From a virus, in the IMG/VR virus record IMGVR_UViG_3300047160_035982, positions 13-64,012 of that record: a stretch of DNA of 64,000 nt; one strand, given 5' to 3'. A program made the translations under genes and the position numbers. A model generated the notes under the pieces. That model was not told where the DNA came from and did not search any database. It worked only from the letters and a program-made list of their open reading frames with translations. Positions 3,132-63,376 of this stretch are shown here, in pieces (position 1 is the first letter of the stretch; the number at the start of each line of letters is the position of its first letter).

Positions 3132-3451
3132 TTGCTCAGCTTCTCCTCGATTCGTTGGATCTGCGCAGCCATCTGCCGCTGCCGTTCGGTCGCCACCGAA
3201 ACATCGCTCTGGGTTGCTGCCGGGGTCCGCGCACCGAAGAGGTTTCGGACGCCGGCGATCAGGGCGATCCCGGTGAGCAGCACCAGCTCGTCCAACGGCC
3301 CGCTCAAGCCCTTCTCCTTGCCCATGATCCAGATGTCGTAACAGGAAACCCCGATGGCGATAATCCCCGCCAGGGGTTCCCGCCACCAGTGCACGGGATC
3401 ACCGTTGATAGGCTTGGGGTGGTCTAGTTGCTGCTGTTCCGGGTTGTCCAT
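3128..3451 (-). CDS. Putative holin
   Basis: 107 aa, two hydrophobic segments (LAGIIAIGVSCYDIWIM; LVLLTGIALIAGV), charged C-terminus, directly upstream of the lysin candidate. Confidence 0.55.
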   Translation of the reverse strand: MDNPEQQQLDHPKPINGDPVHWWREPLAGIIAIGVSCYDIWIMGKEKGLSGPLDELVLLTGIALIAGVRNLFGARTPAATQSDVSVATERQRQMAAQIQRIEEKLSK

Positions 3452-3719
3452 TGTTACTGGCCTCCGGTGGCGGTGGCGGCGGCAGTTCGGGCAGACGCTG
3501 GTCCAGCTCCTCAAGGAAAGCGTCGGAGATGTCCCAGGCCTTTTTGACCGGCTCGCCCTCGATCACCAGCCGCATCGCGACCTCCAGGCGGATCGAGTCG
3601 CGGGTCAGCGCGTTGGAGCTGCGGCCCTCGCTGAAGACCTGCGTTGCGGTGATGATGTAAGGCCGTTCGGGCTTACGGCTTGCTTTGCGAGGCCCAGGCT
3701 TTGGCGTAGTCGCTTTCAC
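3399..3719 (-). CDS. Hypothetical protein
   Basis: 106-aa ORF in the late operon, Pro-rich C-terminus. Confidence 0.45.
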   Translation of the reverse strand: MKATTPKPGPRKASRKPERPYIITATQVFSEGRSSNALTRDSIRLEVAMRLVIEGEPVKKAWDISDAFLEELDQRLPELPPPPPPEASNNGQPGTAATRPPQAYQR

Positions 3720-3912
3720 AGGCTGCTTTGGCTGCGTCGATCCCGTCGTGTTCGCCCCCGATGGGCTTGGTCATCGGGTTGCCGTTCTCGTCCAGAAAAG
3801 TCACGGTGGCCGCGTACTTGTCTGGAGCATTGGAGAAGGGGAAAATCTTGTAGTAATTCCCCGTCGTGCCTCGGGCCGCGAAGCGCGGCTCCTGATTCCA
3901 TTGTAGTGCCAT
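3673..3912 (-). CDS. Small phage protein, paralog family (copy 1 of 3)
   Basis: MALQW...DAAKAACE pattern shared with 11517-11837 and 16637-16957; follows a tail fibre gene. Confidence 0.55.
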   Translation of the reverse strand: MALQWNQEPRFAARGTTGNYYKIFPFSNAPDKYAATVTFLDENGNPMTKPIGGEHDGIDAAKAACESDYAKAWASQSKP

Positions 3913-3919
3913 AGGGTTT

Positions 3920-5101
3920 CTAGTTGCTCCTGATGATGTAATTGACGGCCAGATACGGTTGCATGTTGTTATGCGGCTGGTTACCGCCAGCCCCGTCCAG
4001 GCCGATATTGGATTGGGATGGGTTGATGGAAATGTTGGCATTGGCGGCATACAGGATCATGCCGGTCGCCGCGTAATAAGTCCCGCTCATCGGGTAGTCC
4101 CAGTACCGGATGCCGATGAACAGGCCGGATGCCGATTGATAGCCTTCCGGCGTCGAGTTCATCGGATGATTGTGCAGCGGGTCGGCCAGACCGTGACCGT
4201 GCGGGGTCTGTGCTACCACATGGGAGTGACCGTAATCAAGCACGGTATGGCCGTGCCAGGGCATCTCGCCCCAGGCCAGAACGTGCTGCTCCTCGCCCGC
4301 CTGCAGCCCCAGCCATTTGCTCGGGCTGACCCCGACCAGTGTGCGGTTCCGGCAGTCGGGCAGCGCGAGGTTGTTGGCGTCTCCCCCGTAAAAGTTACCG
4401 ACCACCGCCGCCAGGGCCGGATACTGGGCCTTCGGGTACCACGCCCCGTTGCAGACCAGCCAGCCCGGTGGCACGGCCCAATCGGGACCGGCATAGGGCA
4501 TCATGGCCCCGACCGGTACCGCCGTCTGGGAGGACACCCGGATCGTGTCCGCGTCCTCCGTCACCGTGGTCGCGCCCACCCCCGAGATCCGCTTCAGGCG
4601 GAACTGGTTCCCCAGGCGGTTGGCGAACACGCCCGCGCCCTGGCCGATGTTGACCAGCTCCATGTCGGCATTGAAAACAGCCGTGACGTTCTCGGTCGTG
4701 CCGATAGCCACCGCGATCTGCAGGGTATGCTCATTTCGGGAACCGCCGCCCATCTCGGGGCTGATCGGATCGGGCGGGCCTTCGGCGATGGAGACGGCGT
4801 ACAGTGCTTCCGGCTCGCTGCCCACGGTCGCAAACACGCCGATCTCGTTCAGGAAAAACTCCTGCGGGATGGAGCCCAGCGGGATCACGGTCGTGATCGT
4901 CACCTGCCCGATAGCGGTACGGGCCACGCCGACAATCGGGCTGTTCATAACCGGGTCTAGGAGCGCGGTCAGCTCGGGGATTTCTCCCCAGGTCGGCTGG
5001 CCCTGCCCGAGGCCGATCCGGGTGAACGTCACCAGTAATCCGGTCTGCCCCTTGGCGATGATGTCCCGGCCCCCGTCCGTCAGTCTTTGCCTGTAACTCA
5101 T
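3920..5101 (-). CDS. Tail fibre protein with tail-collar domain
   Basis: N-terminal baseplate-anchor region, collar motif VPVGAMMPYAG...WLVCNG...LPDCRNR, HxH repeats, C-terminal HNNMQPYLAVNYII. Confidence 0.85.
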   Translation of the reverse strand: MSYRQRLTDGGRDIIAKGQTGLLVTFTRIGLGQGQPTWGEIPELTALLDPVMNSPIVGVARTAIGQVTITTVIPLGSIPQEFFLNEIGVFATVGSEPEALYAVSIAEGPPDPISPEMGGGSRNEHTLQIAVAIGTTENVTAVFNADMELVNIGQGAGVFANRLGNQFRLKRISGVGATTVTEDADTIRVSSQTAVPVGAMMPYAGPDWAVPPGWLVCNGAWYPKAQYPALAAVVGNFYGGDANNLALPDCRNRTLVGVSPSKWLGLQAGEEQHVLAWGEMPWHGHTVLDYGHSHVVAQTPHGHGLADPLHNHPMNSTPEGYQSASGLFIGIRYWDYPMSGTYYAATGMILYAANANISINPSQSNIGLDGAGGNQPHNNMQPYLAVNYIIRSN

Positions 5102-49108: not shown

Positions 49109-49240
49109 GGAAAAACGAAAAGGCCAGCTTTTACACTGACCTTTTCTCCATGCATTGCCTCGCCAGACCGCGCCCAGCCATACCACGCCAAAGCGAGCCT
49201 TGCCGTGACGTCTTCAATATCGACTCGTTTGAATCACGCT
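49109..49240 (-). ncRNA. Orphan (NN-GGY)10 pentamer tract with flanking hairpins (putative guide D)
   Basis: Ten RCC-NN pentamers at 49157-49206; hairpin 49117-49146 whose loop CCAGCTTTTACACTGA resembles 58021-58037. Confidence 0.75.
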
Positions 49241-54948: not shown

Positions 54949-56205
54949 TCACTCGTCGTCGGCAGGTTCGCGCACAGTCGGCAGGTGATAGAGAGCGAAC
55001 GCGCCACCTTCAGGGTTTTTCGCTTCGGACCGAAGCAGCCGCCTCGCAAAAGTCATTTCTTTTATAGCGGCGAATGTCCAGTCGCGACCTTTATTGAGTT
55101 CTTTTTTCACAAGTTCACACAGACTTTCTCGCGAATATTTCTGCGTTGGTTTTATGAGTTTCAGGATTCGTTCGTACGGGACAAATTTCGATTGCCCAGC
55201 GCCCCCTTCTTGCTTGCCGATGCGTTTCTCACGCTTTTCATTCGCTGCGTCTGCTTTGTCTGATTCGCAAAGCAGCCACAGCCAATCGCCGTTGTCATCG
55301 ACTGAGCGGCGCAGATGAATACGGTCTTCGGTCCAGCCGAGTTCGTGAAACCCTTTACCGCCGCAGAGACAGAACACGTCATCGTCGACGGGCAGAAGCA
55401 GAATGTTTCCACGGCAAGCGTTCGTGATCGACGCCATCCCAGCGCCCGCGTACTGAATCTCGTAGATCGTCTGGTCGTTAGGATTCTTCCCACTCGGTTT
55501 CGGCGGGTGATGAATAACAAGACCGCCGCAGTTGAGCCTGCGCAGAACCGACGGGAACCGCGCACGGATGAAATCGTTAAGGCTCGGCTCGTCGTAAACG
55601 CCCTTGCTGAGGAACGAGGTCAGCGGGTTGACACAAATAACGTCGGGTTTGAAAACTGCAGCGTGACGCCCTATTTCAGCGATTGCCGCAGAGTCTTGAA
55701 CACCCTGCAGCGTCACGACAGCCGTGTTGGCATCGACCATCGCCCGTTGCTCAGCAGTGAGATTAAGCCGACGGCAGAGATGCCCGATGCGGATCAGCTT
55801 GTTCTCTGAATCTTCAGCTTGAAAGAAGATAGTCCGCAACGGCCGCGGGATCTTGATCGAGAAACACATCTCGCCCATCGCCCAATACACTGATAATTGA
55901 GCTGCGAGCGTACTTTTGCCGGCGTAGCTTGCGCCGACGAGAACAACGAAATTTTCTGGTTCGAGAAACCCGCTGCCCATCAGGAACTTTGTGACATCGA
56001 CTTCAAGGTCCGAGTAATAGATCCACGACCGCATCGGCAACAGCGGCTTTTCATGTTGCTGCTCGCCGTTCGCGAACGGATCTGGTTCTTCAGTTTCACG
56101 CTCGGGCTCTTGCGCGTAGTAAGGGTTACCTTGTCGTGACGACGACTGAGCAGATGACTTTGATTTGGATTCGCATTCATGAAATTCATGGGCTGATGGC
56201 TCCAT
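54949..56205 (-). CDS. RepA-like (AAA_25) helicase
   Basis: VGASYAGKST Walker A, FFQAED, VIHHPPKP, YAGAG; AAGGAGG RBS before ATG 56205. Confidence 0.82.
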   Translation of the reverse strand: MEPSAHEFHECESKSKSSAQSSSRQGNPYYAQEPERETEEPDPFANGEQQHEKPLLPMRSWIYYSDLEVDVTKFLMGSGFLEPENFVVLVGASYAGKSTLAAQLSVYWAMGEMCFSIKIPRPLRTIFFQAEDSENKLIRIGHLCRRLNLTAEQRAMVDANTAVVTLQGVQDSAAIAEIGRHAAVFKPDVICVNPLTSFLSKGVYDEPSLNDFIRARFPSVLRRLNCGGLVIHHPPKPSGKNPNDQTIYEIQYAGAGMASITNACRGNILLLPVDDDVFCLCGGKGFHELGWTEDRIHLRRSVDDNGDWLWLLCESDKADAANEKREKRIGKQEGGAGQSKFVPYERILKLIKPTQKYSRESLCELVKKELNKGRDWTFAAIKEMTFARRLLRSEAKNPEGGAFALYHLPTVREPADDE

Positions 56206-57235
56206 CTGCTTCCTCCTTGATAGGCTCGGGTCGAAGCGCCTCGTCAGGCGCGACATAGTAGATCGTCTGACGGTTACCGTTGTCGCGGATACCGCCAGGC
56301 AGTCTGACGTATTGGTTAAGGTCAAAAACTTGTGAATCAGCGCCAAGGCGCACAGCTCGGCACATGAAATTACGTGATTGTTTTTCAGTCTTTTCAAAGA
56401 CACGCCACCACGCATGCAGACTTTTCCCGCCGCTTGAGACGACGAGGACAAGCGGCATCAACTTTGCATTTGCAAGCTCGACGATCGCAGCCGCGCAAGC
56501 GTCAGCGACCGAGACACCTGACTGCTCCCATGCTGTGATGATTGGCTTCCATGCGGTCTCGGTCTTGCCATCACGCGCATACGGGGCGATGTCGAACTCG
56601 GTCACGAGATAGCATCTGCGGCCTACACTGGCCTTGGCATGTTCGCTTTTCTTCCCTTCTTGCGTCAGCCCGTAAACTGAGAGCATTGGGTTCGGGAGGA
56701 TAAATTGATACTTTGCTAAATGACCACGCCAGACCTCACGTCGGCGCGTAGCAAATTTGTAAGCAAATTTCGCAACGCATAGCAGCGGGTTCGCAGGGAA
56801 AAGGATGTCGATAGTCTGCTCGCAATGATCATCCGCGTCCTCGAAACGCAGCGGCGAACGTTCCCAGAGGTCGTATAACCCTGGCCCGTGTTTTCCTAAC
56901 AGATAGACGTGACCTGTATCAGGCGCAGGCCAAGCAGGTTCAGGCGATGCAGCTCTGATGATCGCACTCGCTGGACTCTGCGCATTGATCGGGGCAGTCT
57001 TCTTTTCAGCAGCAGCGACTGCGCCCTTGATTTCGCGCTGTGTGACAGTGCGCCCAACACGGCGCGTCGTTTGATAGAGCATCTCGATCTTAGCCGCTGT
57101 CGAGTACCCCGCCTCGTGCAGCAGACACGCGGTCACGAACAGCCATTGGTGCACGCCCGAGCCAGCTGTTGGAGGAGTCGCCAACGCATTCAGAGCGCGA
57201 GCTGAAACCTTATCAATAGCTGAATCAGCGCTCAT
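56186..57235 (-). CDS. RepB-like/AEP-type primase
   Basis: LVTEFD, VSSGGKSLHAWW, YVRLPGGIR; coupled to the helicase. Confidence 0.7.
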   Translation of the reverse strand: MSADSAIDKVSARALNALATPPTAGSGVHQWLFVTACLLHEAGYSTAAKIEMLYQTTRRVGRTVTQREIKGAVAAAEKKTAPINAQSPASAIIRAASPEPAWPAPDTGHVYLLGKHGPGLYDLWERSPLRFEDADDHCEQTIDILFPANPLLCVAKFAYKFATRRREVWRGHLAKYQFILPNPMLSVYGLTQEGKKSEHAKASVGRRCYLVTEFDIAPYARDGKTETAWKPIITAWEQSGVSVADACAAAIVELANAKLMPLVLVVSSGGKSLHAWWRVFEKTEKQSRNFMCRAVRLGADSQVFDLNQYVRLPGGIRDNGNRQTIYYVAPDEALRPEPIKEEADGAISP

Positions 57236-57633
57236 TTTCGCAGTCCTTGATTGAGCACAATCTCCATCGCTCGGCGCAGATTGAAGCTCAGGTTGTCGCA
57301 CTCTTCCAACGCCCATCGTATATAGTTAGGCGGCAGCTCGCCGACGCTTCGACCTTTATACTTACCGAAATTGACGAGGTAACCCCTAGCGGCTTCGAGT
57401 TGTCTGAGCGCAAAAGTTCTCTGCGCGAACGCAGCGACGACCTGCTCTGCACTCACGCCGCGTTGGCGCCATGACCGCACAAGCATAACTGCTGCATTGT
57501 CGACCTCGCCTTGATGCGCCGCAGAATTGAGACCTAGCGTTAGCAATTTTTGCTCAACGTCGGTGAACACGGGCCCGTCGGGCGAGACAACTTCTCGCTT
57601 GAAAATCAGATGGTCTTCGACAAAACTGAACAT
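57232..57633 (-). CDS. DUF3820/QSregVF_b-like protein (homolog of 36682-37014)
   Basis: FGKYKGRSVGELPPNYIRW; N-terminus also similar. Confidence 0.7.
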   Translation of the reverse strand: MFSFVEDHLIFKREVVSPDGPVFTDVEQKLLTLGLNSAAHQGEVDNAAVMLVRSWRQRGVSAEQVVAAFAQRTFALRQLEAARGYLVNFGKYKGRSVGELPPNYIRWALEECDNLSFNLRRAMEIVLNQGLRK

Positions 57634-57748
57634 GTTATTGTGTTGTTAAAAAACTGAACTCTCGATTTACCTCTCGACGTTTAGTGCCTTTTGCCCGCCC
57701 TGGCTCGTTACCTCGGCGGGCTCTTTTTTGTGATTATCCTCCGTGCGG

Positions 57749-57940
57749 TTATTTCGGTTTGATTTCGAGCCGCTCCAACGCAGCAACGACCTTCTCGGGG
57801 TTATATAAAAACGTGCGGCGATCGACTTTTACGGCGGGGATCAACCCTGTACGCCGCAGCGTTCTGATCTTGCGCGGCGTGAGTGGGACAACTGATCGAA
57901 GCGATTCTTCGTCAACCAGAGAACATAAAGCGTTCAGCAT
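57749..57940 (-). CDS. Excisionase-like HTH protein
   Basis: IRTLRRTGLIPAVKVDRRTFLYNPEKVVAAL. Confidence 0.6.
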   Translation of the reverse strand: MLNALCSLVDEESLRSVVPLTPRKIRTLRRTGLIPAVKVDRRTFLYNPEKVVAALERLEIKPK

Positions 57941-58007
57941 ATGTCATGAAATACTTCACGAGATCGTTGAGACTCGTCAGCGACGCGTACGCACTTGTTA
58001 GGACCCC

Positions 58008-58373
58008 AGAATGCCGCCGACCAGCTTGTTAAACTGATCGGCGGACTTCCATGCCAACGCCTTGCCTTGCCCGACCACCCCAGGCCTCACCCGGCCTCAC
58101 CTTGCCCGGAATGCCGCTGTCTGCTGAACAAGCCAAACAGCGGACTTCCATGCCATGCCTCGCCTTACCGGGCCGGACCCCGCCGCGCCACACCTGGCCG
58201 CGCCAAGCCGTACACTGCCCTGCCTTGCCGCGGAATGCCGCCCACTCTTTGCGAATGAGCGGACTTCCATGCTTTGCCTTGCCCGACCACGCCGCGCCAA
58301 AACGCGCCAAGCCCAACCTGGGCGTGCCTCGCCGGGGAATGCTGCCGACTCTTCCTTTAATCGGCAGATTTCC
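58008..58373 (-). ncRNA. Array of three (NN-GGY)n pentamer tracts separated by four conserved hairpins (putative guide RNA array)
   Basis: Tracts A 58053-58107, B 58152-58231 (16 pentamers), C 58271-58335 (13 pentamers); hairpins 58008-58050, 58108-58149, 58232-58268, 58336-58373. Confidence 0.88.
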
Positions 58374-58384
58374 ACAGCCTGACT

Positions 58385-59095
58385 TCACGCGTTCACTAAC
58401 TTTTGACGTTTCATCCATTGAGTTAAAGCCTGCTCAAGTTTCAGTAATGCCTCGACTGTGTCGTCGTCATCAGCCTCGATGTAATCGTCAGTAAGCAGGA
58501 TTGTTAGATCATCAGCCAACTTAATAACCTTTTGTCCACTGAGCGAGCGTTGGCGTTCGTCGATTGCTTTCACTTCTTTTTTGATCCACTGCTCATCCTT
58601 GCTCTGCATCTTGATCTGCAGCGGTTCAACTAGAGGCGCTTTTAAAACAACAGGTTTGACTGCGTCCGAGTCACTCCACACGCCGCGTTCACTAATAGCT
58701 TTCTCGAATTCAGAAACCGGGATGCGCACGATCTTGGCAATCTCCTCTGAAGAAAACTTCATGCGGGTTAACTGCATCGCTGCACTAAGCTTTTCCTGAT
58801 AGCTGAGGCCGTGACCGTGTGTGGCGTTGTCTTTAACGGCTAAAGGGAACCATTGTGTTTCGAGCTCTTTGGTTACGATTGCAGCGATCCGCGGCAACTT
58901 CCTTCGTCGGTGCGCCTCGTATCGGTGACGGCCTCCGATAATCACATAACGATCATCGCGTTTACCAACGAGAATCGGTGGCAAAACATCGCCTACGCGC
59001 AAGGCATCGAGCAGCGACTCGATGTGTCTCCAACTAACTTGATTGCGCGGATAGATCGTCTCATCAATCAAAATTCGGTCGATGCTGATATACAT
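58385..59095 (-). CDS. ParB/Srx N-terminal domain protein
   Basis: IYPRNQVS...LPPILV...YVIIGGRHRYEAH...NATHGHGLS. Confidence 0.8.
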   Translation of the reverse strand: MYISIDRILIDETIYPRNQVSWRHIESLLDALRVGDVLPPILVGKRDDRYVIIGGRHRYEAHRRRKLPRIAAIVTKELETQWFPLAVKDNATHGHGLSYQEKLSAAMQLTRMKFSSEEIAKIVRIPVSEFEKAISERGVWSDSDAVKPVVLKAPLVEPLQIKMQSKDEQWIKKEVKAIDERQRSLSGQKVIKLADDLTILLTDDYIEADDDDTVEALLKLEQALTQWMKRQKLVNA

Positions 59096-59098
59096 AGG

Positions 59099-59743
59099 TC
59101 AGGCTGCCTTTCTCTTTTTAGATTTCTTTTCTTCAAGAATCGTCGGCTCTGAATCGAAACCGACAATCTCGGGTTCAGGAATAAAAGCTTCTTCGCGCTG
59201 CGGCAACAACTCGAAGCGTTTTAGGTAATACTGCCCAAATGGGCCTTTCTTCTCTGGTCGAAAATCGCAGACGCCATTGAGCACTCCTGCAGTTTTGATT
59301 ATTTGCGGCCCAAATTTCTGCATGATGGGGATCGGAATCCATTCATCGCGGAAGTGCAGCTCAAACGTCACCTCCCACGGCCAGATCTTCGGTCGGCTAT
59401 GTGGCACGCGATTTTTCTGAATGACGACTGAGCGCGTATCGATCTTGTACTCTGTCGTGTTCAACGAAACGAATTCTGGCGTGATCGCGACACAACCGAT
59501 CATCGCTGTCGACATTTTCAACTTGCCGACTTTATAGTTGCCAGCAGCCTTAATGAAAGACCGGTAGAACGCTACCCCAGGAATCGCCAACGAGGATTTG
59601 TCGTCGGTCCAGTATAAGCGCTTTCTTGCTTCCTCAGCTGGATCGTAACTGACTTGCTTAACGCTCGTCTCACTGTTCATCGAGCTGATGTTATTCAATA
59701 AAGCGGGGGTCAACCCGCAAACTGTAATTTTGATTTGTCTCAT
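59099..59743 (-). CDS. RAMP/Cas7-like RRM protein (Vipr-like effector)
   Basis: ITVCGLTPALL (beta1), LAIPGVAFYRSFIKAA (IPG-helix), RPKIWPWEVTFEL, Gly-rich loop AGVLNGVCDFRPEKKGPFGQY. Confidence 0.75.
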   Translation of the reverse strand: MRQIKITVCGLTPALLNNISSMNSETSVKQVSYDPAEEARKRLYWTDDKSSLAIPGVAFYRSFIKAAGNYKVGKLKMSTAMIGCVAITPEFVSLNTTEYKIDTRSVVIQKNRVPHSRPKIWPWEVTFELHFRDEWIPIPIMQKFGPQIIKTAGVLNGVCDFRPEKKGPFGQYYLKRFELLPQREEAFIPEPEIVGFDSEPTILEEKKSKKRKAA

Positions 59744-59768
59744 AGATAATTAACCGCGTTTTGTCAGA

Positions 59769-60527
59769 TTAATTGCTTTTATCCCCGAGTGCTCCCTTCG
59801 CTATCGTGACTCGACTACCAGCCGCATCACCTGCATGGTAAGCGCTCGAGTCGGAGAAAAACTCCTCACGCCGCGCTTTATGCGTAATATTTATGTTTCT
59901 GGCCTCGAATGCCTTCCTAACAATATCCTCTTTCACAACGACAATCGCCCGACAATTATTGTCGGCAGCTTCGTTCTGCGCCGCCTTCATGGTGTAGAGC
60001 CGAGTTGATATTCTCTCGACCATTCCCCGCATGAAATTGGCGCGTGCCGTTCCAGGCGATGAAATTGAGTCCTTGCGGTGTGCATTCCAATACAAGTGCC
60101 ACTCAGTATCCATCGCGTTGCGCAAGATGTCGGTTAGATACGTTGCGACCTGTACATCAGTGGCTAGCCCGAAGTAGACTAACAATACGCCACGATGATC
60201 GTGGAGCCGCTGATACCAGTGGCGTGTGTCAGTGTAATCGGCGATTGCACCCGCGACATGTAAGACCTCATGCGCACGCACTCTGCCTATCGTCATCGCA
60301 TCCGTCTCGCAGACATCCGAAGGTGTTGAGATCGATTCAAGTTCCGAAAGACTCAGACCGTACTTCGTCATTAATTTCGAAGCCAATTCAGCGGCTGCTA
60401 ATGCTTCGCCCTCGGTACAGCCGCGCTCTTTCGTTTTTGCAAGTAACGCTGAGATCTTGTCGAGCAACGCGGCTCGTTTATCGGCAGATTGCCCTTGATC
60501 AGAGCTTCGCGTATCTTTCGTTCGCAT
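59769..60527 (-). CDS. DUF2786-domain protein
   Basis: LLDKISALLAK...EGEALAAAELASKLMTKYGLS. Confidence 0.8.
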   Translation of the reverse strand: MRTKDTRSSDQGQSADKRAALLDKISALLAKTKERGCTEGEALAAAELASKLMTKYGLSLSELESISTPSDVCETDAMTIGRVRAHEVLHVAGAIADYTDTRHWYQRLHDHRGVLLVYFGLATDVQVATYLTDILRNAMDTEWHLYWNAHRKDSISSPGTARANFMRGMVERISTRLYTMKAAQNEAADNNCRAIVVVKEDIVRKAFEARNINITHKARREEFFSDSSAYHAGDAAGSRVTIAKGALGDKSN

Positions 60528-60584
60528 ATTCAGTTGATTAATTCTCGCTCGCGGTTGATTGCAGTCGGCCCGAGCGGTTTGTTG

Positions 60585-61250
60585 TTAATCGTTAGATTCA
60601 AGGACGTCATCTTTAAGGCCCTTGTAGTGGTGGAACAGATGCAGGACCATAGCCGTCGCAAGATAACGGCAGGCTTTAGGATTTTGGTCTTTCTTGATTT
60701 TCTCCCAGCCAAAATAAACAAGTTTGTTGGCCTCGTTTTCCGTGATGCCGTATTTGGCTTGCTCGACTTCTGATTTCACTTGCTTCCGTAAAGGGGGAGT
60801 CGAAGAATCAGGGGGCTTGTTTTCCGGGGGTTTGCCAGTGTCTGGGATTCCTTCTTCGTCGTTACTGGGAATCTCAGATTCAGGGTTCAAACTTGACGCA
60901 GGCGTCAAGTTTGATGGGGCTGTCGAATCTGACTCAAGTTTGCTATTGTGACCCATGATCTCTGCTATGAATCGGGCTTGATGCTCTTGCAGCAGTGGAT
61001 CATCGCGTCGTTTATAGACGCGCATATAACGGGCGATCGTCCGATAACTGAGTTCGGGGATATTCTTTTCGACCCAAGGCATCCATGATCCATGAGGCAG
61101 TCCGTGTTTGACACGGGTCATGATCTCTCCAGCTTCGATCATGCGCTCGATCATGATTTTACCCATGCCGATGAGCTGATGATGAATCGTCTTTATCTGG
61201 TCGGCTTCTTCGCGAAAAAGCGGCTCTGATTGATCCGAAGGCGTTATCAC
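60585..61250 (-). CDS. DUF3102-domain protein
   Basis: MIEAGEIMTRVKHGLPHGSWMPWV...RTIARYM. Confidence 0.75.
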   Translation of the reverse strand: MITPSDQSEPLFREEADQIKTIHHQLIGMGKIMIERMIEAGEIMTRVKHGLPHGSWMPWVEKNIPELSYRTIARYMRVYKRRDDPLLQEHQARFIAEIMGHNSKLESDSTAPSNLTPASSLNPESEIPSNDEEGIPDTGKPPENKPPDSSTPPLRKQVKSEVEQAKYGITENEANKLVYFGWEKIKKDQNPKACRYLATAMVLHLFHHYKGLKDDVLESND

Positions 61251-61489
61251 TTCGACGCCTCCGCAGATTGCGCATAGCGACTGCCGCCGGGTAGAAAGCT
61301 ACGGATATAGGCGTCAAGGCTAGCGAGGTTGACGAGCCAAACGCCCTTCGTTGCCCCGGGTTTCTTGATATGCGAGCCGAGGATGTCACCGCGCACGACA
61401 GCGCGAAAGAGTTCTGGGCGACTTATACCAGAACCCGCAGAGGCGCGGGCAAGTCGATCCCATTCGAGACCGGTTAGTTCCTTTTTCAT
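61247..61489 (-). CDS. AlpA/excisionase-like DNA-binding protein
   Basis: GISRPELFRAV...KGVWLVNLASLDAYI. Confidence 0.6.
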   Translation of the reverse strand: MKKELTGLEWDRLARASAGSGISRPELFRAVVRGDILGSHIKKPGATKGVWLVNLASLDAYIRSFLPGGSRYAQSAEASK

Positions 61490-61613
61490 AGTGGAACTAA
61501 CTGTCGCATGAGAAAATCAGCGGAATAAGTGACCTCGTAAAAAAATTGTATGTCACCCTATCCCGCTATGAATTGGGTGACGTCGCGAGAAAGTTAGGAG
61601 TCACCCTATCAAG

Positions 61614-62213
61614 TCATGTAATCTTCGATCGACGAGTGGCGTTGCGCAGTTTTGACAGCCCAGCTTTTTTGAAGAGACGCGCCCATTCGGATGATGTCTT
61701 TGGAATTCGTAAGCCGGCTTGCTCGAAAATCTCGACTGCTCTCTTGCGCACTTCCTTCTTGAGCGGCCAATCGTTCTCGTCGTCACCTTTGCACAAGTCA
61801 CGAAAAGCAATCATCACGACGCGCACGCCGTGCATGTCAGGTTCTGGGGATTGAGCGAGTCTGACAGTGTCAATCAACGCTCGCAGGATTTCGTCTTCCT
61901 TATAAAACACGGCAGCAAGGATCAGCTCTTTGAAATCTGCAATGAATACGCGGTCATCGCATGACGGATGCGTATTTGTTATTCTGAACCACGGGGCGAA
62001 TTCCGGGTTTTGTTTCGCGTATTGTCGCCACCTTTGTAATTCCTGCCAGATCTCGGTCCGAAAGACGAATTTCGTATCCGTGTATCGTTTGACCGCTTGC
62101 AAAAATTCCCGTGGATAGTTTTTCCCGACATCGGTCATTTGATGTCGCAGTAAGGAGTAACGACCCCAAAGCGACCTCGGCAAATCATGCGAAGAGTATT
62201 CGTCGTCGCTCAC
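61614..62213 (-). CDS. Hypothetical protein
   Basis: 199-aa ORF coupled to the integrase stop. Confidence 0.5.
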   Translation of the reverse strand: MSDDEYSSHDLPRSLWGRYSLLRHQMTDVGKNYPREFLQAVKRYTDTKFVFRTEIWQELQRWRQYAKQNPEFAPWFRITNTHPSCDDRVFIADFKELILAAVFYKEDEILRALIDTVRLAQSPEPDMHGVRVVMIAFRDLCKGDDENDWPLKKEVRKRAVEIFEQAGLRIPKTSSEWARLFKKAGLSKLRNATRRSKIT

Positions 62214-63376
62214 TGTTGCCCCTCCAATTTCGGCAAGCGCGGGATGAGCTGCGTTGCTGCTTTGATCGATTCGAGGTCTTCGTGGATGTAGCGATCGACG
62301 GCACCGCCAGCGGCGTGGTTCGTAACTCTGCGCGTGATCTCGCGAAGCGACGCTTGGTTGAACACGTTACTCGCTGCGGTATGGCGAAAACTGTGAAACG
62401 AGAGCGCTCGCACAGCTCGCCCTTTACCCGTGTTGCCTTGACGCAGCAGACGCTTTTCGATTCCTGCCTTATCGAGCAGCTCGACAAAACATATCGAAAG
62501 ACCGTGTGCGCCCTTAATGCCTTTATTCGCCAAAGTGGGAAACACCGGCGCGTCAGGATCGTCGGGCACGGGGCGACTGCTCAACCAATCGAGAAAGTCA
62601 GGGTGCAGACCGAGACACGCCTTCGCATTTGTCTTTTGCTCGCGGAATGTGACGATCGAGTTCGCGACATCGAGGTTCGACCATTTGAGACTCTTGCAAT
62701 CACCGAGCCGCGCCCCGGTGCCGTACGCGAACAAGATCAGCCCTTGCCAATCCGAGTCGGCGATCGAGAGCAGAGCGGCGATTTGATCTCCCGTGAATGT
62801 CTCTTTCGCAAGCGGCTCGCTCTTTTCGGGCGTTGTCGCCATGACAGGGTTGAAACGAAGTTTGCCGATCTTTCGCGCTTTCTCGAAGGGCGCCGACAGG
62901 TACTTGCGGATCAGTTTGTTGATCGTCGCTGACGATCGCCCTTCTTTACGCAAGAGTCGGACGAACCCTTCGATGTCTGCGGTCGTGATCGATTCGAGCC
63001 GACGCGTTGCCCCGCGTTCACCGAGATAAGCAATGAACTCGTCGACCGCTTGCCCGTAAGCTTCGAACGTCGATGCAGCGATTTGCCCCTCTTTCGAGTC
63101 GAGCCATTCGCGCAACCAGTCCTTTACGCTGACGTATCCGATCGTCGCTGCGCCGATGCGTGCGAGCGTCTCGTTCAGGATTTGCAGAACTCGATCGTGC
63201 GACAACTCGACGTTTACAGCAGCGTCCTCGGCGGCCTGCCACGCTTCGGTGATGATCTTCGCCTTGTTTTTGTCACGAGTTTTGGTTGAACGCCAGACAC
63301 GTCGACCGTCAGCGAGGCGCAGAGCGGCGTACCAGACACCTTTCGGCGAACGCGGATTACGATGAACAGAAGCCAT
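62210..63376 (-). CDS. int: Tyrosine integrase (satellite)
   Basis: TGARLGD (R), SFHSFRHT (HxxR), VTNH, DRYIH (Y); adjacent to attR. Confidence 0.92.
   Translation of the reverse strand: MASVHRNPRSPKGVWYAALRLADGRRVWRSTKTRDKNKAKIITEAWQAAEDAAVNVELSHDRVLQILNETLARIGAATIGYVSVKDWLREWLDSKEGQIAASTFEAYGQAVDEFIAYLGERGATRRLESITTADIEGFVRLLRKEGRSSATINKLIRKYLSAPFEKARKIGKLRFNPVMATTPEKSEPLAKETFTGDQIAALLSIADSDWQGLILFAYGTGARLGDCKSLKWSNLDVANSIVTFREQKTNAKACLGLHPDFLDWLSSRPVPDDPDAPVFPTLANKGIKGAHGLSICFVELLDKAGIEKRLLRQGNTGKGRAVRALSFHSFRHTAASNVFNQASLREITRRVTNHAAGGAVDRYIHEDLESIKAATQLIPRLPKLEGQQ

Follow-up and report, generated by a model that had tools for sequence, protein, structure and literature searches.

Conserved hairpins with a 2x2 internal loop as probable 3' tails of guide RNAs in a ParB_N-linked VIPR locus

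The four hairpins located between positions 58,008 and 58,373 of the window (the whole stretch of 64,000 nucleotides analyzed here, from the IMG/VR record IMGVR_UViG_3300047160_035982) are, with a probability that we place at about 85%, conserved, structured elements that form the 3' tails of vrRNAs in a VIPR system, which comprises a vipr gene, a ParB_N gene and an array of three guides. They are read as vrRNA tails because the stretches between them are pentamer tracts, and because a homologue of Vipr is encoded upstream. As is the case for VIPR tails, they lie 3' of a pentamer tract, are conserved among the guides, carry compensatory changes, and are found beside vipr.

VIPR, first described in 2026 (bioRxiv 10.64898/2026.04.26.720920, 10.64898/2026.04.26.720927), is a CRISPR-like system that silences DNA under the guidance of RNA. 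It consists of a minimal RAMP protein, Vipr, and of vrRNAs in which 9-16 or more YNNGG repeats precede a structured 3' tail that is invariant; each repeat takes one Vipr protomer, and the NN dinucleotides read double-stranded DNA, with every third base skipped. Seven VIPR types and the accessory genes vap1-6 have been published. The tail of the SUSP1 system is a pseudoknot, seen by cryo-EM to cap the 3' end of the Vipr filament (10.64898/2026.04.26.720920, 10.64898/2026.04.26.720927), and in the VIPR systems for which there are RNA data the tail always remains part of the mature vrRNA to which Vipr is bound. In the P. fulva complexes that have been published there is no tail density usable as a marker, and thus not every tail visibly caps the filament. 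For the maturation of arrays without ribozyme punctuation, no nuclease is named in the VIPR preprints. Both VIPR and structured vrRNA tails are therefore already published, and the picture of the system is unchanged by our results, which add detail to it: what is new is a hairpin tail, specific to one clade and bearing a 2x2 loop, that is linked to a ParB_N gene in a satellite-like element, together with its proof by covariation, the observation of leader copies, and a rule for an in-phase GGR triplet at the end of the guides.

The four hairpins are conserved RNA structures

The original prediction had described three copies of a GGAA-GT/CA-TTCC motif and one variant. The pattern GGAAGTCCGC-N(5-35)-GCGGCATTC does match the window three times, always on the minus strand (58268-58233, 58149-58109, 58050-58009), and has no match in 100 dinucleotide-preserving shuffles of the window, so the copies and their coordinates are as described. 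The variant is the hairpin at 58373-58336, whose motif is GGAAATCTGCCGA...TCGGCAGCATTCC: its architecture is the same as that of the other three, but its sequence differs (GGAAAUCUGCCGA...UCGGCAGCAUUCC), reading GGAA-AU-CUGCCGA...UCGGCAG-CA-UUCC on the minus strand. All four fold as ((((..(stem)..)))), with minimum free energies from −17.4 to −26.0 kcal/mol and z-scores from −5.1 to −6.2, and none of 200 shuffles folds as stably. What they have in common is a lower stem of 4 bp (GGAA/UUCC) and a symmetric 2x2 loop that never pairs; the linkers, which had been noticed to differ while remaining self-complementary, form upper stems 9-14 bp in length, topped by loops of 3-12 nt; the stem sequence varies while pairing is kept. 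For every hairpin the complementary strand folds less well (in one example, −12.6 versus −21.1 kcal/mol), because the stems contain U.G pairs: the tail of vrRNA 1, GGAA-GU-CCGCUCAUUC-GCAAA-GAGUGGGCGG-CA-UUCC, has three of them, valid on the minus strand only, and in the tail of vrRNA 3 the closing pair is G.U (TTCT/UUCU in place of TTCC/UUCC). A look-alike hairpin at 3344-3380 on the plus strand was discarded as a chance match to the search pattern.

We aligned 23 hairpins from six related loci, which had been found in metagenomic contigs through homologues of the ParB-like protein and of Vipr (alignment A1). Under the structure ((((..((((((((((...))))))))))..)))), 96.6% of the 322 pair cells hold standard pairs, a share that drops to 82.6% if columns are shuffled and to 23-54% if the 3' partner columns are slid. 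Double compensatory changes are present at 7 of the 14 pairs, in 51 cells where 18 are expected, a level of covariation reached by none of 500 shuffles; RNAalifold, to which it was not supplied, independently gives the identical structure. Since 44 of the 322 pair cells are G.U pairs that fit the minus strand only (the complementary strand would pair in 82.9% of cells), the structure is that of an RNA transcribed from the minus strand, which is also the strand of vipr. Ten columns of the alignment are invariant and six nearly so (n = 23), and the lower stem GGAA/UUCC, the first upper C-G pair and the 2x2 loop are essentially invariant. The opposed bases of this loop are G/A in 19 hairpins, G/G in 3 and A/A in 1 at one position, U/C in 22 and C/C in 1 at the other: the internal loop proposed from the window is thus a conserved feature, unpairable in each of the 23 aligned hairpins. 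The hairpin loop (columns 17-28 of A1) is conserved neither in length nor in sequence. Overall, these data show that the four hairpins are genuine RNA structures, conserved in evolution.

The covariance model R1, derived from A1, recovers all four copies in the window with scores of 43-54 bits, as well as copies that were not part of the alignment (L200:92-130 with 46 bits, L198:1-30, and four in L202 with 49-55 bits), which add further compensatory variants such as CCGGUGA/UCACCGG. The model has no match in 115 distant Vipr loci (≤38% identity), nor in SUSP1, LESphi2 or DSL-LC04; the hairpin family is confined to one Vipr/ParB-linked clade. At the gathering threshold Rfam reports only a single tRNA in the window, while a permissive search of 57600-58800 gives chance-level matches (E > 2), and blastn of 57700-59100 against phage and plasmid collections finds no match. 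Scans of viral and genome contig collections with the exact hairpin pattern (19 specified bases) were set aside, as they returned single matches only, in about the number estimated for chance.

The locus and its guide tracts

The positions of the features of the locus are listed in Table 1.

Table 1. Predicted features of the VIPR locus in the window, with the putative stand-alone guide (hairpin energies and z-scores from RNAfold).
Feature	Position	Strand	Basis or description
Stand-alone vrRNA, 9 kb from the array	49109..49204	-	GGY tract 49204-49157, 3' hairpin 49149-49109 and U run
Tail hairpin of vrRNA 3, last in the array	58008..58050	-	−26.0 kcal/mol, z −6.2; R1 47.3 bits
vrRNA guide tract 3	58051..58107	-	11 pentamer units, 1-nt slip before the last unit
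Tail hairpin of vrRNA 2	58108..58149	-	−20.9 kcal/mol, z −5.1; R1 47.8 bits
vrRNA guide tract 2	58150..58231	-	16 pentamer units
Tail hairpin of vrRNA 1	58232..58268	-	−21.1 kcal/mol, z −5.9; R1 54.3 bits
vrRNA guide tract 1	58269..58335	-	13 NNGGC pentamer units (10 canonical GGY, 3 degenerate), ends GGCAU
Leader hairpin (variant tail copy)	58336..58373	-	−17.4 kcal/mol, z −5.9; R1 42.8 bits, E 3.8e-8
ParB_N-domain accessory gene, 236 aa	58385..59095	-	Pfam PF02195, E 3.7e-7
vipr, predicted RAMP/Cas7-like protein, 214 aa	59099..59743	-	hhalign, phmmer, AlphaFold2/Foldseek

The 214-aa protein has no Pfam match. A family profile made from it and from its homologues in six related contigs (alignment A2, 41-80% identical) matches SUSP1 Vipr, whose sequence was obtained by translation from the phage record, with an hhalign probability of 97.1% (E = 6e-11, 162 columns). 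Its best phmmer match in the PDB, with a weak E of 0.25, is the chain described as 'SUSP1 Vipr protein' (36pp_D). The AlphaFold2 model (pLDDT 78) gives a best Foldseek E of 3e-5 with a TM-score of about 0.5, and the matches at ranks 1-50 are CRISPR effector chains, almost all of them Csm3, type VII Cas7 and Cmr backbone subunits. In SUSP1 the D-W-R residues of the G-loop hold two guanines and the pyrimidine; the D-F-R-P of the window protein aligns with them, and D-[FYW]-R is invariant in the family alignment. Judged by profile and model, this protein is a homologue of Vipr with a predicted Cas7-like fold, and on the combined basis of the hhalign score, the PDB match, the AlphaFold2 model and the G-loop the locus is assigned to VIPR.

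The ParB-like gene follows vipr immediately in 8 of the 8 related loci in which the downstream gene is readable (L152, L154, L156, L160, L161, L198, L200, L204). Its product is unrelated to SUSP1 vap1, and a search of the viral contig collection with it gave no related loci. The VIPR locus is hosted by a small integrative element on the minus strand (window 54949-63376) of a metagenome-derived record that IMG/VR lists as a provirus, with the gene order integrase, DUF3102, DUF2786/DUF7168, vipr, ParB-like, array, AlpA-like HTH, RepB-like primase and AAA_25 helicase; this placement fits the published bias of VIPR toward proviruses and satellites. Neither Pfam nor PADLOC recognizes cas or defense families in ten neighboring genes. 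A possible tie of the hairpin to a C-terminal extension of the Vipr proteins of the clade was dropped, since most of it is also present in L204, which lacks the hairpin.

The stretches between the hairpins were recognized as tracts of NNGGC pentamers, 67, 82 and 57 nt long, both by reading the sequence and with a tract caller; a tandem-repeat finder did not report them, because they are too degenerate. Each of the three canonical hairpins is directly 3' of a tract of 11-16 units, and the same order of tract and hairpin is found in L150, L152, L154, L156, L161, L200 and L202. Throughout the tracts the NN positions differ, while the base of the hairpin stays conserved.

The junction between tract and tail follows a pattern of its own. 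In 64 of 111 distinct tracts (58%), distributed over many clades, the triplet in phase after the last GGY-NN unit is GGR (GGA or GGG). The corresponding figures are 2 of 111 for 5' flanks, 3% for positions out of phase, and 18% for degenerate units inside the tracts, the last of these differing from the tract ends with a Fisher p of 2e-11; this count covers the window (58008-58373 and 49109-49204) and the loci L147-L150, L152, L154, L156, L160-L196 and L200. The Y of GGY sits in a pocket of Vipr that sterically excludes purines, as seen by cryo-EM (10.64898/2026.04.26.720927), and for this reason the filament could plausibly be stopped by a GGR with a helix behind it. More generally, a purine at the Y position may be the stop unit of Vipr filaments, which suggests a simple sequence rule that would be useful for the annotation of guide ends and for guide design. 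The last pentamer before the hairpin is also fixed within each locus: it is GGCAU in the window and in L150, and GGCGY (with one GGUGC) in L152, L154 and L202. Being fixed in this way, the 3'-most unit may belong to the handle rather than to the guide.

Position and probable role of the hairpins

The original prediction had pictured the array as hairpin-guide-hairpin. That hairpins separate the guides is correct, but the repeating unit is a guide plus its 3' hairpin: the self-starting arrays of L152, L154 and L202 open with a tract and not with a hairpin, and a hairpin follows each tract, and the stand-alone guide of the window has its hairpin on the 3' side only. The hairpin therefore belongs to the 3' end of the guide, as published for vrRNA tails. 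In the three self-starting arrays the first tract begins 5-8 nt after an A/T-rich, −10-like hexamer, identified by eye only.

The fourth, variant hairpin is a leader copy placed between the array and the ParB-like gene; its first base is 12 nt past the stop codon of that gene, and it ends 2 nt ahead of guide tract 1. Leader copies directly after the ParB-like stop codon are present in the window, in L156, and in the more distant L160, where the tail fold is different; the copy in L150 is degenerate (18.6 bits), and in L161 only a remnant is left. This rule is drawn from fewer than ten loci, with three self-starting arrays against four or five that follow a gene. Two layouts can be distinguished among the loci: array-vipr-parB (L152:1360-1400, L154:1200-1230, L202:40-70) and vipr-parB-array (window 58373-58385, L150:1383-1433, L156:2670-2724, L160:3699-3746).

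Only 1-2 nt separate each hairpin from the tract that follows. No sigma-70-like promoters or terminators are found on the minus strand inside the array of the window, where there would also be no room for them, and scans of the L152 and L154 arrays for promoters and terminators give nothing on the relevant strand. The bases after the four hairpins are CCGG, GCGG, GGGC and GGGG; with no U run, and with no minus-strand terminator called at any of the four, we ruled out that they are intrinsic terminators.

The stand-alone guide ends differently. Its hairpin (−19.1 kcal/mol, z = −4.7) is terminator-like, with a 12-bp stem closed by GGA/UCC and followed by the U run; R1 does not match it, and it shares with the array tails only the in-phase GCAU-GGA junction and the GGA/UCC closing helix. 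The record has a single copy of vipr. If the same Vipr loads this differently tailed guide, then the conserved motif of the array tails is not needed for loading. Because the stand-alone guide has no neighbor from which to be separated and does not carry the GU/CA motif, the comparison mildly favors a role of this motif in the maturation of the array rather than in the loading of Vipr.

Among known systems, the type II VIPR of SUSP1 is one of the closest parallels: there too a conserved structured element lies directly 3' of a GGY/NN tract, once per guide and beside vipr, its tails begin with an in-phase GGR (GGGUG, GGGUA, GGAAG), and the Vipr proteins are homologous. The tails differ in fold, however: that of SUSP1 forms an H-type pseudoknot (~40 nt), that of the window one hairpin carrying a 2x2 loop, for which a pseudoknot fold was rejected, since the hairpin loops vary in both length and sequence. 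SUSP1 array units are separated by ~40-60 nt of conserved sequence, while in the window the next tract begins 1-2 nt on; the accessory gene is vap1 in one case and ParB_N in the other; and R1 has no match in SUSP1. By fold, by the unconserved loop and by R1, the window hairpins thus fall outside the pseudoknot tails of the SUSP1 clade. The closest relative of the window Vipr found in an annotated phage is that of LESphi2 (L147), a VIPR of a Pseudomonas prophage (tblastn E = 2e-7). Its tracts are likewise followed by an in-phase GGG and by short hairpins with conserved bases and variable upper parts, but its tail has two or three hairpins (GGGCUG-loop-CAGC and others) over 60-70 nt, with no shared sequence and no R1 match.

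In CRISPR systems of types I-E and I-F a repeat hairpin is found at the 3' end of the mature guide, where it caps the RAMP backbone filament, and the Cas6 cut at its 3' base produces the next 5' end. The likeness to our array lies in a hairpin that is repeated between guides, at the 3' end of each. As a class, the CRISPR array to which the locus had been compared does not describe it: CRISPR repeats are near-identical over their full length, and the spacers are contiguous guides taken up by Cas1-Cas2, whereas here the hairpin is fixed only at its base, the 'spacers' are pentamer repeats that code the guides, and Pfam and PADLOC find no cas genes among the ten neighboring genes searched. A CRISPR array was ruled out on these grounds.

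Arrays of vrRNAs punctuated by hammerhead ribozymes, and 'staggered' arrays, have also been published (figs S18-S20 of 10.64898/2026.04.26.720920); they resemble the array of the window in being compact, so that each vrRNA begins where the previous one ends, which implies that the units must be separated after transcription. That separation is needed is also indicated by the hammerhead ribozymes that published arrays of other types carry between their units. In the window, by contrast, Rfam finds no ribozyme, and self-cleavage by a hairpin of 36-43 nt is unlikely.

These comparisons can be put together in a tentative scheme. The operon would be transcribed as a single minus-strand RNA, and Vipr protomers would polymerize along each GGY/NN tract, one per pentamer, until the in-phase GGA of the tail places a purine in the pyrimidine-only pocket and a rigid helix follows, at which point the filament would end. 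The mature guide would keep the hairpin at its 3' end, where it would act as a cap and hold off exonucleases; this capping role is suggested by the homology to SUSP1. The same hairpin would mark the cut in the precursor, near its own 3' base, much as the CRISPR repeat hairpin does for Cas6: we infer this second role from the geometry of the array, with gaps of 1-2 nt, and from the leader copy before guide 1, which would insulate that guide from the upstream ParB-like mRNA. Candidates for the enzyme that would make the cut are Vipr, the ParB-like protein, and an RNase III-like or RNase E-like enzyme of the host. Both of the roles envisaged by the original prediction, processing and filament capping, are supported in this way by analogy with the published VIPR systems and by the comparison of loci.

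The part of the hairpin to be recognized would be the GGAA/UUCC stem, the never-pairing GU/CA loop and the first C-G pair, with the upper stem acting as a scaffold, and we infer a recognition role for this motif toward a protein. A more specific version, which we consider unlikely, is that the stem and the loop form a Cas6-like recognition and cleavage site read by Vipr itself or by its ParB_N partner. If true, the clade would mature its own polycistronic array with neither a ribozyme nor a host RNase, in what would be a direct functional antecedent of pre-crRNA processing, and this would explain why the motif is kept in arrays and leader copies and is absent from the stand-alone guide. The maturation of multi-guide vrRNA arrays is not settled in the VIPR preprints, and the clade provides a compact test case for it: a hairpin of 36-44 nt with a short invariant core, no spacer to the next guide, an insulating leader copy, and natural controls in the sister loci with AU-rich linkers in place of hairpins and in the differently tailed stand-alone guide.

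Other explanations of the hairpins share some of this evidence. They could be pure processing sites, cut on both strands (for example by the RNase III of the host) and discarded, leaving guides that are bare tracts with no cap. A helix of 15-20 bp-equivalents interrupted by an internal loop resembles the RNase III sites of phage T7, cleavage at the hairpins is suggested by the leader copy and by the gaps of 1-2 nt, and, as the sister loci L203 and L204 indicate, a guide in this lineage can function with no hairpin tail. We nonetheless consider this rather improbable, as Vipr-bound vrRNA still carries its tail in all VIPR systems for which RNA data exist, the stand-alone guide ends in a 3' hairpin even though there is nothing to cut it from, and the in-phase GGR junction ties the tail to the register of the filament. 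The freedom with which upper stems and loops vary, the unrelated terminator-like hairpin of the stand-alone guide, and the presence of other hairpins directly after GGR in other clades would all be accounted for if the tails were generic 3' stabilizers or transcription punctuation (a block to exonucleases, or a polymerase pause) with no sequence-specific recognition. This is decidedly improbable: 11-12 positions (GGAAGUC...GCAUUCC) vary hardly or not at all among loci with Vipr proteins only 48-80% identical, the internal loop never mutates to a pairable combination while the neighboring pairs covary freely, and the stems are found with neither a U run nor a minus-strand terminator call.

Plasmid centromeres are often arrays of inverted repeats, and the position of the array, with a ParB_N gene immediately before it and the AlpA-like, primase and helicase genes after it, would suit inverted repeats in the DNA that serve as centromere or operator sites bound by ParB_N, or as the origin of a satellite-like element. 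This interpretation is extremely improbable. The G.U pairs in 44 of 322 cells would be A.C mismatches on the other strand and are meaningless in duplex DNA; the conserved arms GGAAGUC and GCAUUCC are not reverse complements of each other; the hairpins of L152, L154, L200 and L202 travel with the tracts upstream of vipr, away from the ParB-like gene; and the tracts obey the published grammar of vrRNAs. On the sequence evidence a ParB-parS centromere was likewise rejected, the conserved base being non-palindromic and its pairing dependent on G.U.

Tails and linkers in related loci

The vrRNA tails of this lineage are not all of the same kind. The sister loci L203 and L204 have no tail hairpins, and AU-rich linkers are found instead, even though the Vipr and the ParB-like protein of L204 are 44% and 50% identical to those of the window; therefore the hairpin is not indispensable to this lineage of Vipr, and represents one of several interchangeable solutions. 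In both loci (L204:1-130 and 1380-1536, L203:230-490) the tracts end in fixed GGCGA units before the AU-rich linkers begin, and two of these linkers hold GGAUUU or GAUUUCC, which look like remnants of a collapsed GGAA...UUCC stem.

Another arrangement is found in L189:3501-3850 (IMGVR_UViG_3300036804_000195), where five consecutive tracts are set apart only by 6 nt (GGAUCC, GGACGC or GGAUUU) and no hairpin is present; this arrangement may correspond to the published class of 'staggered' arrays. In L160 (Vipr 41% and ParB-like protein 38% identical to those of the window) the tail, in the region 3699-4200, consists of two hairpins closed by GGA...UCC, and a divergent second ParB_N gene is encoded upstream on the opposite strand.
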